Virus record (IMG/VR): IMGVR_UViG_3300021979_000001
Location: 258,948 to 322,947 of that record
Strand: one strand, 5' to 3'
Length of the DNA stretch: 64,000 nt
DNA from: a virus
Lineage: Duplodnaviria > Heunggongvirae > Uroviricota > Caudoviricetes
The notes under the pieces were generated by a model. That model had not been told where the DNA came from, made no database searches, and worked only from the letters and a program-made list of their open reading frames with translations. The translations under genes and the position numbers were made by a program. Of the stretch, positions 43,003-52,257 are shown piece by piece. Position 1 is the stretch's first letter. Each line of letters begins with the position of its first letter.

Positions 43003-44178
43003 TTAAACGATGTAATGTGGGACGATTTTTGAATCACTCACGACGATTGGACTGTCATCTTGTTCGCGAATGACCATACCACACGCGGTTTCGCCAACAC
43101 ACCATGATCCAATCACAATATAATGGTTATCAATGTGTGGGACATTAACCCGAGCCTGGTATATATTGCGAGATCGATACCCGGCATCATGACTTTCAAT
43201 CACACCGTCCGGTGACACCATCTTAATATTTGCTCCTTCCCGTGCAAGTATCGGTTTTGCGACATAATTATCCCCCAGTTTGTCTGGGCTGAAATATGCC
43301 GGTAGCAAATTCGGATGATCCGGGAACAAATCCCATAACACTGCCAATATCGCTTTGTTGGATAATAATGCTTTCCAAATTGGTTCCAGGAAACCGATAT
43401 TCGCATTAACGAGAGCATCACCAAATTCTTCGGCAAACATCCATTCCCACGGATATAGCTTATCCAAAAACCGGATCACAATGTCGTCTTGATCAACAAA
43501 TTCACCATCTTCGGTAAGACCGATCATATTAATCGGGACATGCTTAACCTTAATGCCCCCTTGCATGGCAAGTTCCATGTAATATTCAATGTGTTGGCGT
43601 TCTTCTGGTGCATCATGAAATGACGTAAAATGCAAGATAGCCCCTTCTGGCATCAAATCACGAATCCGGGAATACCGATCAATCAATTCTTCGTGTAAAC
43701 TGTTAAATTGATCTGCATCGGGATGCACGTCGTTTTTCCACATCCACTGGATAACACTTGTTTCAATTGCGGTCGTTGGGGTATCACAATTGTATTCAAG
43801 CATCTTTGGTGCGGTTAATTCCGGGCGGGATGGATCGAATAATAAATCAAACCGTCCTTTGATATATGGATCATTTCGTTCCCAGGATTCAATGATCATC
43901 GGGCGAAACTTTTCTGGAATTTCGAAATTATCCATCAAATGAGGATTTTTGACAATGTGGGCAACCGCATCCAAACACCGTTGGTGCAATTCTTCTGTTG
44001 CCGCTTCAATTGTTTCAATTTCCGGTAATGAAAACGAATATGAAACCGTTTCATCCCAATAGCATCCGTCATTCCCAATTTCGGTTGATGGATGAACGCC
44101 GAAAGAATGATAGGTCAAACCTTGATCTTCAACAATTTGAACCCAATCATTTCGGGCCAAATGGGTGTCGCGCTTCAT
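43003..44178 (-). CDS. glutathionylspermidine synthase family ATP-grasp ligase (YgiC-like)
   Basis: YWDE..Y.F, GRFDL, KMLEYNCDTPT, QFNSLHE, KLYPWEW, EPIWKALLSNKAIL..LW..FPDHPNLLPA, KP..REGAN, IGSW. Confidence 0.92.
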   Translation of the reverse strand: MKRDTHLARNDWVQIVEDQGLTYHSFGVHPSTEIGNDGCYWDETVSYSFSLPEIETIEAATEELHQRCLDAVAHIVKNPHLMDNFEIPEKFRPMIIESWERNDPYIKGRFDLLFDPSRPELTAPKMLEYNCDTPTTAIETSVIQWMWKNDVHPDADQFNSLHEELIDRYSRIRDLMPEGAILHFTSFHDAPEERQHIEYYMELAMQGGIKVKHVPINMIGLTEDGEFVDQDDIVIRFLDKLYPWEWMFAEEFGDALVNANIGFLEPIWKALLSNKAILAVLWDLFPDHPNLLPAYFSPDKLGDNYVAKPILAREGANIKMVSPDGVIESHDAGYRSRNIYQARVNVPHIDNHYIVIGSWCVGETACGMVIREQDDSPIVVSDSKIVPHYIV

Positions 44179-44246
44179 CTATTAAATCCCCACATTAAAT
44201 AAAAATGTCAGGACAAAACACCATCCTGACACAAATGCTGTTCAAT

Positions 44247-44738
44247 TTACGCACCAACCGAAAATGATCGTCCAGTTGATCCAAACCCACCACGAGAAAC
44301 TGACCGTGCCCCGGTCACAGGGGTGGTAGCCCGCGAATTGGTTGATGTGAACGTGTTTCCATTCTTACCGAAATACACCGGACTTGATGTATAATAAGAG
44401 GATGAATCGCGTGTCATACGTCCCATCATATAACCCATCCAGATCGGCAAAAACACCGATCCACCACCGGACGATGCCTGCGTTTCACACTTGCCCACAC
44501 CAAATTGGTTTTCGCATTCTTCCTTTTTGGAAAAAGTTGGCGCAGATTTCTGATGTTGTTCCTTTGCTGATGCCATCATATTTTTGCATGTCGCTTCCGG
44601 GTAGTAGTGAGAACAACTGTCCACATCACTAAAGGTGTTTGGTTTCCGGTCATCCTGGCATGCACCCAACGACAACGCGACCAAACTGACCGTGGTGAAC
44701 GTAATAAATTTCATACTTTTTGTTTGTTTCATGATCAT
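44247..44738 (-). CDS. DUF1190 (YgiB-like) lipoprotein
   Basis: Lipobox LGAC, AP.F.....CE..FG...C, F.P...GYMMG, SRGGFG C-terminus; upstream of the YgiC-like gene. Confidence 0.85.
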   Translation of the reverse strand: MIMKQTKSMKFITFTTVSLVALSLGACQDDRKPNTFSDVDSCSHYYPEATCKNMMASAKEQHQKSAPTFSKKEECENQFGVGKCETQASSGGGSVFLPIWMGYMMGRMTRDSSSYYTSSPVYFGKNGNTFTSTNSRATTPVTGARSVSRGGFGSTGRSFSVGA

Positions 44739-45905: not shown

Positions 45906-46418
45906 ATGCGCGAACATATCAATATTGTTAAAGGTTTACATAACACCAAATCAACATTGGATGAAAAAAGAGCCAGGCGGTCAAAAAGAAAAACCCGCCG
46001 GAAACAGAAAACCGCGTCGTTGGTGTATCCTTATGTTGGGGCATGGTATGGTTATAATGACGATACCGGGTTTGATGGTGGAGATGTGTCAGAAGACATT
46101 GATGCCAGTGTTATGGGCGTGATTGATGAAGATCGTAACCCAATGCCGGTTTTTTATGGTTCGGATGATTCTGACATCAATGGTTGGTTTTGCAATGATC
46201 GGCAGTTTGCAGTCGAGTGTGGTAGTAATGTGTCATCCCATTATATTAAAATGGCAAAACCCTATGTAATAGAAAATCCTGGCTTGCAACATCCAATGTT
46301 AACCGGGGAAGACCCAGTGCCGATGTTACAGAACCAAGGATATGATGGGATTATTGTAGCGGGGAATGGGTTGATAAATTATTATGTATTTGACAGTTCA
46401 CAAATAATCAACATCTGA
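45906..46418 (+). CDS. basic-patch protein with degenerate ART-PolyVal-like domain
   Basis: MREHINIV...LDE, KRARRSKRKTRRKQK, NPMPVFYGS...WF...A...YIKMAKP...GYDGII...YYVFDSSQI; GATAAATA at 45864-45871. Confidence 0.55.
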   Translation: MREHINIVKGLHNTKSTLDEKRARRSKRKTRRKQKTASLVYPYVGAWYGYNDDTGFDGGDVSEDIDASVMGVIDEDRNPMPVFYGSDDSDINGWFCNDRQFAVECGSNVSSHYIKMAKPYVIENPGLQHPMLTGEDPVPMLQNQGYDGIIVAGNGLINYYVFDSSQIINI

Positions 46419-46419
46419 A

Positions 46420-47415
46420 CTTTGCAATTTTTGCAATACGGTATCGGTATATACACAAAGCCGAAGGCCGGTAACAACCAACCTTCGGCTATTTGGCCCG
46501 TGTCTTCAATACTGTTCGGGTTACAGCTTTATTTTTTTATTTAATAGTTCATTTTATTTTTGACATTTGATCCCCGACGAAACTATTATGATCGAACATA
46601 CGCATAAGGAGTAACAGGGGCGACTCCACCCCAAAAATTTAGACCAGAAAACGAGACTGGGATAAATGATAGTGCAATCACCAAGCCGTCGATCCCCTCG
46701 ATCAGTAAGGGTGATGGCAGCCGCTTGACAGAAGAATGCGAAAGCCGTTCTGTAAAAAGGCACCACGAAAAAGATGGCAATATGTCTTACAATTTGACAA
46801 ATGCCTGCATGCATCGTCCCCCAATGGCGTAATGCATGTGCTTGATACTTTTAAATCCAATATTTTTATCATAACCGTTTGGTCGCAATAAAATTTACCG
46901 GATTGGCGCTGGATGTGTAATTCCCAGTTACCTTTCTCTTGTAGGTGAAATTGACCGGAGTAGGGCGGCTACACGCTGGTTTCGGGAAACCGCCAGCTTC
47001 ATCTATAAACGATGATCACCGCTAATTGGGTTGGCAATGTGACTCAAGATGTCATATCTCCAATAGTCTCCCCTGTCTAACAAATATTTTTTCCCATGGT
47101 TCTATTACTATGGATAAATTTTTGTTAGACAGGGGGGCTAAAATATTGACGTGATCTAAGATATTGAATCAAACAATAGTTTTAAGATAATTGTTATCAA
47201 ACAATAACATTATTCTTCCAAAATGGCATAACGAGTGATGATAAAATCATTGCGATTTCAAGAGCAATGATTTTAGATAGAACGAGTTAAATGCCTAGTG
47301 GGGAATGAAATGAGTGTTCCCGTAAGGGAATACGAATGAAATTTCACGCTACATAATAATAAAAAACACACAGAAACAATCCATGTGTTTTAATTGGTCT
47401 TTTTTATGGATGTCT
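46420..47415 (+). ncRNA. ~1-kb structured non-coding region (candidate large ncRNA and/or replication origin)
   Basis: No credible gene; many stems (46459-46490, 46685-46718, 46728-46753, 47070-47135, 47242-47275, 47298-47347), with G-T wobbles favouring the + strand. Confidence 0.5.
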
Positions 47416-51165: not shown

Positions 51166-52257
51166 ATGCGAATATTTGAAATTGAAACGTTGGATGCTCC
51201 AAATTCTCAAAATATCAATAAAAACAAAGCGTTTGATGCTTGGTTTGGTAATAGTAAAATACGAGATAAAAATGGAAATCCACTTCAAGTATATCATGGA
51301 ACGAACTCTGATGCTGATTTCATGGAATTTACCCCGGTGCGTAGTGGGAGTCCAGATGTCGGATATTATTTCACACGAGATTCGGAATATGCATCCGGGT
51401 ATGCGACTGCATTTAGCAATAATTTGAACAATGCTAGAATTGTCCCGGCATATCTTTCCATACAAAACCCATATTTTTGCATATTAAAACCCAATGGAAT
51501 TAATGGTTTCGATGATACTGCCAAAACAAAATTGATAAAGCAGGGATATGATGGCCTTGTTGTTGGTCTTACCGAATATGAATACGAAACCGGGTCCAGA
51601 AGTATACAAGATGATGCATCAGAAATTGTTGCATTTAAACCAAATCAAATTAAATCAATATTCAATTCAGGGTCATGGAAACAAGATACAAAAAATATTT
51701 CAGAAACATCAGCAATATCAGAAGCAAAAAACGTTGGTATACTTTATCACTTTACTGATTTGCATTCTGCCTGGGCCATATTAGAGGATAAGCAATTAAA
51801 AATAGGTGATACCGAAGGATCATTCCTGGCGTCTGGTGGTGGTTTTACAGTTACACATCCAAGAACACATATTAGTCTTACCCGTAATCCTCGTTTGCAA
51901 CGATTGGGTGAAAATTATCCATGGGGTCCAGTTCGTATTGTGCTGGATGGCGATAAATTATCACAAAAATATAAAATAAACCCGTATCAAGATCAAATAC
52001 ACGGTATCACCCGACATGAAAACCAAGCAGAAGAAATGATTGCGAACCACGTTGTTGATATTACTGGGTGCGTGGTGCGGGTTGATTTTAATATTTCTGA
52101 ATATATAACTAGATCGAACGATTTTGAAACATGGGTATCCATGCCAGACGATGACTCAAAAAAGAAATATATTCAACTTAGTAAAGATGACGCACAAATG
52201 TTCGTTAAATATATCAAATCACTTGGATATGATATTAATGTGGTGAAGAAATTTTAG
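51166..52257 (+). CDS. two-domain ADP-ribosyltransferase-like protein (ART-PolyVal-like plus a second H-S-E-type domain)
   Basis: FDAWFGNSK..D.NG.PL.VYHGT...GYYFT...YA..Y...YLSIQNP...GYDG...EIVAF.PNQIKS; then LYHFT...ISLTR...EE. Confidence 0.65.
   Translation: MRIFEIETLDAPNSQNINKNKAFDAWFGNSKIRDKNGNPLQVYHGTNSDADFMEFTPVRSGSPDVGYYFTRDSEYASGYATAFSNNLNNARIVPAYLSIQNPYFCILKPNGINGFDDTAKTKLIKQGYDGLVVGLTEYEYETGSRSIQDDASEIVAFKPNQIKSIFNSGSWKQDTKNISETSAISEAKNVGILYHFTDLHSAWAILEDKQLKIGDTEGSFLASGGGFTVTHPRTHISLTRNPRLQRLGENYPWGPVRIVLDGDKLSQKYKINPYQDQIHGITRHENQAEEMIANHVVDITGCVVRVDFNISEYITRSNDFETWVSMPDDDSKKKYIQLSKDDAQMFVKYIKSLGYDINVVKKF

Follow-up and report, generated by a model that had tools for sequence, protein, structure and literature searches.

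Large structured RNAs repeated along the chromosomes of jumbo phages may mark replication origins

What lies in the longest stretch without open reading frames in this phage DNA, and what could it be for? In the window analysed here (the whole stretch of 64,000 nucleotides), this gap spans 46419-47415 (997 nt) and is locally GC-richer (42-45% GC versus 39% for the window), as was observed in a first-pass annotation that proposed a large structured RNA at 46420-47140. Comparison with related sequences confirms that the stretch is a genuine structured RNA gene that is absent from catalogues (Table 1). The proposed bounds need adjustment at both ends: positions 46420-46559 are 5' of the promoter, and at the other end conservation does not stop at 47140, since the unit also takes in a second repeat (47153-47166) and then a downstream tract that extends to about 47345.

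Table 1. Features of the RNA gene and its flanks, in window positions
Feature	Position	Strand	Basis or remark
RNA gene as a whole	about 46596-47165	+	bounds narrower than 46420-47140
Terminator-like hairpin, outside the conserved RNA	46459-46490	-	scores as a minus-strand terminator; no paralog counterpart
Sigma70-type promoter, TTGACA-18 nt-TATTAT	46560-46589	+	11/12 match
Structured RNA core, about 460 nt, repeat X1 at its end	46596-47054	+	alignment of 18 members and covariation
5' H-type pseudoknot, GGAGT/ACTCC and GGGG/CCCC	46608-46632	+	permutation p<5e-5, own versus others' partners
CCAG/CTGG hairpin (CCGG/CCGG in paralogs) and 5' arm of long-range helix	46644-46662	+	
Conserved module GCCGCTYG / AAAGGCAC enclosing a covarying inner stem	46720-46763	+	alignment, covariation
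Two-tier helix, TGTC/GACA cap	46774-46806	+	covariation
Hairpin with loop CCCAAT (46820-46825) kissing ATTGGG (47025-47030)	46807-46840	+	p<5e-5
Near-invariant CATAACCGT	46870-46878	+	alignment
TTTACC/GGTGAA helix around variable domain	46894-46949	+	conserved; covariation p=0.15, not significant
3' multi-helix junction (GGC-GGC/CCGCT; GCTGG/CCAGC with GGGRAACC; TAAA hairpin) and kissing partner	46963-47030	+	
Repeat X1, GACTC-AAGAT	47041-47054	+	covaries with X2, 17 members
Long 3' hairpin, 3' arm ending in a G-run	47049-47152 (main stem 47068-47137)	+	length variable
Repeat X2, GATCT-AAGAT	47153-47166	+	covariation with X1
AT-rich tract, 80% AT over 50 nt	47166-47230	+	base composition
GNA mini-hairpin-like words, AT-GAA-AT variants	47231-47345	+	strict form absent here

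The source phage, referred to here as G000, is represented by a 457,165-bp contig of 38% GC that encodes a permuted tmRNA and 20 tRNAs. G000 is a T4-like jumbo phage, with a T4-like major capsid protein that shares 74% identity with that of Sinorhizobium phage Phosso and 64% with that of Atu_ph07. Its host is likely alphaproteobacterial, as suggested by its tmRNA tag, a MucR/Ros-like gene and the presence of an RNA family member in a Caulobacter MAG contig. The MucR/Ros-like regulator (C1:59835-60290) is, by eye, common to the phages G040 and G006. Also present are a host-like gene pair of glutathionylspermidine synthase and DUF1190 (window 43003-44738, minus strand) and small ART-PolyVal (ADP-ribosyltransferase-like) proteins (window 45906-46418, 51166-52257 and elsewhere in G000), which are expanded in the phages that bear the RNA. 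Outside the window, at about 449,000-457,165 and 1-22,000 of C1, the strand skew is extreme (GC skew -0.4), and repeated blocks in this region carry small Gly/Tyr/Asp-rich ORFs on the minus strand.

Three diverged paralogs were recovered in G000 by nhmmer, at 126 kb (-), 199 kb (+) and 416 kb (-) of C1; they are 51-61% identical and each occupies its own gap, giving four copies in total. Together with further members found via covariance models and patterns, the family comprises 18 members with a median identity of 49% in eight phage or phage-like contigs. Beyond G000 these come from G006 (608 kb, three copies), G040 (578 kb, four), G039 (two), G011 and G041, as well as two metagenome contigs and the Caulobacter MAG contig. 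Whole-genome nhmmer searches found no member in G008 or Phosso, nor was one found in Atu_ph07 and four other complete relatives. The phages that carry the RNA form one clade, and gene co-occurrence is therefore uninformative. One member in G006 (351.7-352.2 kb, L274) is shortened to about 450 nt, lacking the central variable domain and retaining the pseudoknot, kissing loop and 3' cassette described below, and represents a natural minimal version. A 1.46-kb ORF-free stretch with two tRNAs in G000 (C1:352449-353905) is not homologous to the family. Pairs of weakly similar ORF-poor gaps occur in Phosso (422-448 kb) and G008 (67/126 kb and 338/398/400 kb), phages without the G000-type RNA, and could hide another multi-copy element.

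Copies recur at syntenic places: in four phages a copy lies between Smr/HAD genes and a DEDD exonuclease, and in three phages a copy precedes spanin-like and DnaJ genes. These are old inherited loci rather than recent insertions. Such conservation bears on whether the RNA is a non-autonomous mobile element, with the short repeat X at its 3' end as target-site duplication. Several copies per genome in both orientations would suit an element of this kind, but the loci are orthologous between phages that share only about 48% identity in their core proteins, and the repeats lie inside the conserved unit, where they flank the hairpin alone; we regard this explanation as largely excluded. The exonuclease at the first locus is a stand-alone T7-type DNA polymerase exonuclease domain (RNase_H_2/DEDD; L046:6099-6578, plus strand), found after one RNA copy in the four phages. 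It was rejected as an obligate partner, as seven homologs occur elsewhere without the RNA nearby and the link is one of synteny. A connection to ribosome rescue through Smr and SmpB was discarded as well, since in G000 the SmpB-like gene (L046:5583-6011, 40 kb from the tmRNA) adjoins only RNA copy C, and none turned up in G040, G006 or G039.

Where does the transcript begin, and on which strand? A strong promoter at 46560-46589 places the start of the RNA probably near 46596, and the layout TTGAC-n-18-nAnnnn is found 5' of 14 of the 17 members; minus-strand promoter matches close to the window copy are weak only. The plus strand, to which G-U mismatches in the window had pointed, is also the one favoured by the G-U asymmetry that the 3' hairpin shows in all but one of 17 members. 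Every stem named in the first-pass annotation was found at its place, but two of them fall outside the transcript: the hairpin AGCCGAAGG/CCTTCGGCT at 46459-46490 is 5' of the promoter and absent from the paralogs, and in TTATG/CATAA the first arm, TTATG, shares bases with the -10 box. When folded against shuffled controls, 46420-47140 gives z = -4.7 on the plus strand and -4.0 on the minus strand, whereas the core of the window copy minus its 3' hairpin gives z = -2.0, so that much of the folding-energy signal is due to this hairpin. Covariation is the stronger evidence for an RNA.

For every helix arm, pairing with its own partner was compared with pairing to the partners from other members, in tests that ignore phylogeny in a family of deep divergence. 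Own partners were favoured (p<5e-5) in the kissing interaction, in five internal helices and in the two stems of the 5' pseudoknot. Several pairings predicted from the window alone are supported across homologs, namely the pseudoknot, two stems (GCTGG/CCAGC and GCATGCAT) and the helix that ACTGGGA and TCCCAGT form over a long range, although the covariation of the last, formed with 46922-46928, is weaker than that of the pseudoknot, internal helices and kissing loop (own partner -19.5 versus -16.9 kcal/mol for other members, p=0.004). The kissing pairing is 4-10 bp long and its sequence is different in nearly every member (e.g., CCCAAT/ATTGGG, CTCGACA/TGTCGAG and TTTCGA/TCGAAA). In the 3' junction 88% of cells are paired in register, compared with 29-58% when slid, with two-sided change in 13 of 17 pairs (0/500 shuffles). 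The GC-GAAA-GC tetraloop that had been singled out is present on a conserved stem, but is itself a variable cap. Two further candidates were rejected for showing no covariation: a second pseudoknot between a GTCY loop and a GRGAT loop (p=0.76) and a stem around the kissing partner (p=0.59).

Does this RNA belong to a known class? Rfam searches of the window and ten other loci gave only tRNAs and chance miRNA-hairpin matches (E<=5-10), and the covariance models of GOLLD, ROOL, OLE, raiA and HEARO did not match. BLASTn against phage and plasmid isolates gave no real match, those in CBB and PBECO4 being in coding regions, and exact-pattern scans gave chance matches only. The reported absence of tmRNA, RNase P and group I/II intron hallmarks agrees with Rfam, ARAGORN and inspection of the consensus. 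ARAGORN was negative for tmRNA here; the tmRNA of the genome, a permuted two-piece molecule with tag ANDNVASNMAVAA, is at C1:160209-160554 (L051), and G006 has a permuted tmRNA too. For RNase P RNA, in addition to the lack of an Rfam match, CR I (GAGGAAAGUCC), CR V (P4) and P1 are absent from the consensus, and other members have not kept an S-domain look-alike seen at 46672-46716. A group I P7 look-alike in the window copy is not conserved either, and group I and group II introns were further rejected on the lack of an Rfam match, the absence of a complement of X in the RNA and the stand-alone promoter. A linked reverse transcriptase, as for a retron or DRT ncRNA, is found neither in G000 (no RVT_1) nor among the shared neighbours of the copies. 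With 18 covarying members, a conserved promoter and no matching Rfam family, the description as an unclassified large phage RNA stands. We found no paper on this RNA or on the replication origins of these 350-600-kb phages in a literature search of incomplete coverage.

The 3' cassette consists, in order, of RACTC-X, a long hairpin with a terminal G-run, a short linker and RATCT-X; the distance between the two repeats, X1 and X2, is 72-148 nt among members. The repeats covary over 17 members (7.5/9 versus 4.5/9 matches, p<2e-5): positions 1-4 of X are the same in both repeats in 16-17 of the 17, yet differ between members, X being AAGAT in the window copy and ATCAGA, AGGTACAG, AGGGC or GGGATG in others. 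The CTC/TCT difference between RACTC and RATCT never varies, leaving a strict 3-nt mismatch in 17/17 members, and the purine preceding it also covaries. A complement of X at a consistent place within the RNA was looked for and none was found, and since X has no partner inside the RNA, its simplest partner is the template DNA strand. We propose that X2 is the annealing site on the template strand and the start of the leading strand. Slippage between nearby repeats could also homogenise X; however, slippage is expected to erase such a mismatch, which persists. With RNA-RNA parameters, X1 is predicted to bind the template only weakly (-6 to -14 kcal/mol), and X2 would pair equally well with the template of X1.

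The same repeats admit other readings. A processed RNA with X1 as guide might direct a protein to AATCT plus X2, in the manner of a TnpB omega-RNA, and this could itself be a means of opening an origin. The strict RACTC/RATCT difference in all 17 members resembles self/target discrimination, and the AAATCY context of X2 is shared with a second RNA family (the Rak2-type, below). We nevertheless consider RNA-guided targeting distinctly unlikely: the covarying purine before the mismatch would not be needed by a protein-read motif, no effector-like gene is found among the clade-specific genes, and the TnpB/Cas12f zinc-finger (PF07282) occurs in G000 only, not in G040, G006 or G039. The TnpB/Cas12f-like gene of G000 (C1:164198-164398, plus strand; 436-aa frame) is 4 kb from the tmRNA. 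Less probable again is a ribozyme that uses the two repeats as sites of cleavage, splicing or circularisation and excises the hairpin; the tertiary structure is of ribozyme scale and the hairpin joins two near-identical junctions, but an internal guide complementary to X is absent, neither Rfam nor inspection reveals the core of a group I or group II intron or of RNase P, and no gene is interrupted. We give very little credence to a template for reverse transcriptase on which the repeats permit realignment (telomerase- or DRT2-like). Covarying direct repeats flanking a template are what realignment needs, but G000 has no RVT_1, no reverse transcriptase is among the shared neighbours, tandem hairpin arrays are absent from the genome, and the mini-hairpins downstream of X2 are on the RNA-like strand and not on the cDNA strand.

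These downstream signals appear to act at the level of DNA. AT content after X2 is 78-86% in the four G000 copies and 50-68% in other members, and we propose that the AT-rich tract is an unwinding element. Family-wide, GC-GNA-GC words within 250 nt number 19 sense versus 0 antisense in their strict form, about six times background and mostly 60-110 nt past X2; in a loose form the counts are 39 versus 9. The strict words belong to the GC-richer members, and the AT-rich G000 has degenerate forms only, with no strict GCGNAGC hairpin in its four copies. Words of the GC-GNA-GC type form very stable DNA mini-hairpins and sit at phage and plasmid priming sites, including those of G4, St-1 and RSF1010 (PMC13037366). 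The RNA-like strand, which carries them, is thus probably used as single-stranded DNA, and we propose that the GNA words are a single-strand initiation signal on the displaced strand.

How are the copies arranged on the chromosome? They are spaced more evenly than random, with p=0.047 in G000, 0.004 in G040 and 0.10 in G006 (Fisher 0.0015). Nucleotide skew, measured at fourfold-degenerate sites and corrected for gene orientation, goes from negative to positive at the copies (keto p=0.0007, 0.021 and 0.033 in the three complete genomes); all four G000 copies show the turn (G-C p=0.0006), while it is weaker in G040 and G006 (the latter two keto values). All 11 copies in the three complete genomes are above the median skew switch, and against an orientation-matched null the p value is 0.003 over 14 loci, although the three loci of G039 and G011, both partial genomes, lack the switch. 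Whichever way a copy is oriented, the skew turns in the same sense, as bidirectional origins would lead one to expect. This skew signal is modest, the windows were picked after a first look and orthologous loci are not fully independent; its p values are supportive, not decisive.

These chromosome-scale patterns bear on the main rival explanation, a free trans-acting ornate RNA that serves as scaffold or oligomer or in host takeover. GOLLD and ROOL, which occur in phages, as well as OLE and raiA, resemble the phage RNA in size, in the density of pseudoknots and kissing loops and in being stand-alone genes; the RNA's several pseudoknots, its own promoter and its phage location fit the class, and some of its words are invariant although unpaired, which hints at tertiary contacts or at bound protein. 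The 3' cassette would then be a processing or termination signal, and the kissing loops possibly intermolecular. In contrast to those four RNAs, however, the phage RNA is evenly spaced, multi-copy, outside tRNA clusters and accompanied by downstream DNA-level signals, and an ornate RNA leaves unexplained the even spacing, the skew switches, the copy-specific repeat without a partner and the strand-specific mini-hairpins. We therefore think it unlikely, although it is the strongest of the rivals.

On balance, if by no means firmly, we favour the reading in which each copy is a ColE1-RNA-II-like primer RNA that marks one of several replication origins. An origin-priming transcript had been suggested from the window alone, and its support is circumstantial, from the spacing, skew, AT tract, mini-hairpins and covarying repeat. 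Each origin would most likely resemble ColE1 RNA II and T4 oriF/oriG in its working, with an RNA fold of its own. Host RNA polymerase would transcribe through X2; the hairpin would loop out the inter-repeat RNA, allowing X1 to anneal to the X2 template strand and nucleate a persistent R-loop, with the copy-specific X making the annealing locus-specific. The RNA would then be cut or trimmed to a 3'-OH within the hybrid, by a phage T4-type RNase H or by hairpin cleavage plus an exonuclease, and the phage polymerase would extend it into the AT-rich tract, while helicase/primase would load on the displaced strand at the mini-hairpins. Genes of G000 read by eye include a T4-type helicase, UvsW, RNase H and polymerase. 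A second fork would start in the opposite direction, as reported for T4. Sequence comparison establishes only that the parts, from the promoter to the mini-hairpins, exist and covary, the later steps being what we infer from them. Counting against the origin reading are the modest skew signal, the lack of strict mini-hairpins in G000, the weak X1:template hybrid with its equally good reverse, and the related phages Phosso, G008 and Atu_ph07, which are without the RNA family.

How close is the likeness to known origins? Masukata and Tomizawa (1990) reportedly described an upstream stretch of RNA II that is identical to a downstream non-template stretch, and in the phage RNA, too, an upstream repeat matches a downstream non-template repeat, so that X1 and X2 are analogous, although not the same in sequence. 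ColE1 (NC_001371) has a G6 repeat at 928 and 1175, 247 nt apart, with GCGTAGC downstream. Its promoter is 550 bp upstream, the hybrid is persistent and helicase is loaded on the non-template strand (PMC5043065). The phage loci share with it a promoter about 550 nt from the putative hybrid site (here 46560-46589, with X2 at 47153), a large folded RNA, a same-strand direct repeat 5' of the origin and a GCGNAGC-type word downstream on the displaced strand. They differ in having 3-4 diverged copies on a phage chromosome where the plasmid has one origin, and, where ColE1 has a G-run repeat, a 6-10-mer that is peculiar to each copy, carries a fixed 3-nt mismatch and brackets a long hairpin; in addition, no conserved RNA I-like antisense unit was apparent, with only weak minus-strand promoter matches near the window copy. 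With the 18-member HMM, nhmmer found nothing homologous to RNA II in NC_001371 at E<=50.

T4 has at least five R-loop origins, each with a promoter plus an AT-rich element (PMC3016281). As is proposed for the phage loci, oriF and oriG are among several origins and combine a promoter, an AT-rich unwinding element and an RNA primer, and some T4 origins are at skew shifts; however, they are about 100 bp long, have no common motif and need no specific RNA sequence (PMC3016281), whereas every copy of the phage RNA has kept the repeat cassette and a covarying fold of 460 nt. As T4 origins need no folded RNA, the elaborate core is unexplained by priming alone. The family belongs neither with ColE1 RNA II nor with the T4 origins, nor does it fall in any Rfam family.

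Is the cassette confined to this clade? A Rak2-type RNA of about 500 nt with its own promoter is present in four copies in PBECO4 and five in CBB, and neither HMM nor covariance model detects core homology with the G000-type RNA in either direction. By inspection, all nine copies carry a repeat, a CCCC/GGGGG hairpin and AAATCY or AAACCC plus the repeat, followed by an AT-rich tract and by mini-hairpins mostly on the sense strand (20:4). Both occurrences of the repeat end in A in every copy of PBECO4, and in G in every copy of CBB. These copies are evenly spaced (p=0.047 and 0.005), with a weak skew (keto p 0.03 and 0.1-0.2; G-C alone shows nothing), and differ from the G000-type in being all co-oriented and in having a repeat that is nearly constant within a genome. 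A generic cassette scan of eight genomes gave 21 matches (10 of 13 G000-type copies, 4 of 9 Rak2-type copies and 7 other sites), and the cassette is also found in 70 more records of cultured enterobacterial phages beyond PBECO4 and CBB.

The 3' end of PA5oct ncRNA004 (L654:417-1035; MK797984.1:246116-246734) resembles the same succession of hairpin, repeat and AT tract. In RNA-seq this 619-nt transcript made up 0.08% of the phage reads early in infection and 0.02% late (PMC7318152). It ends just past a hairpin with GGGGAGGAAATC and a repeated CCGCC, followed by a tract of 83% AT; its match to the Rak2-type HMM has E=0.01, and it failed the cassette scan. Possibly it represents a third family.

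Large ornate RNAs of bacteria and phages are mostly without an assigned function, and our findings add a new family to them. More tentatively, at a strength a little short of probable, we propose that T4-like jumbo phages use evenly spaced origins, each with a large folded RNA whose X1 guide anneals just downstream and primes the leading strand, and that the cassette is common to at least two RNA families whose cores are unrelated or deeply diverged. The presence of the same 3' cassette in cultured enterobacterial phages makes the idea testable without the uncultured phage. Should it hold, a class of large phage RNAs that are now orphans would gain a function, and it would identify the origins of such phages and extend RNA-II-style priming from small plasmids to multi-origin viral chromosomes.
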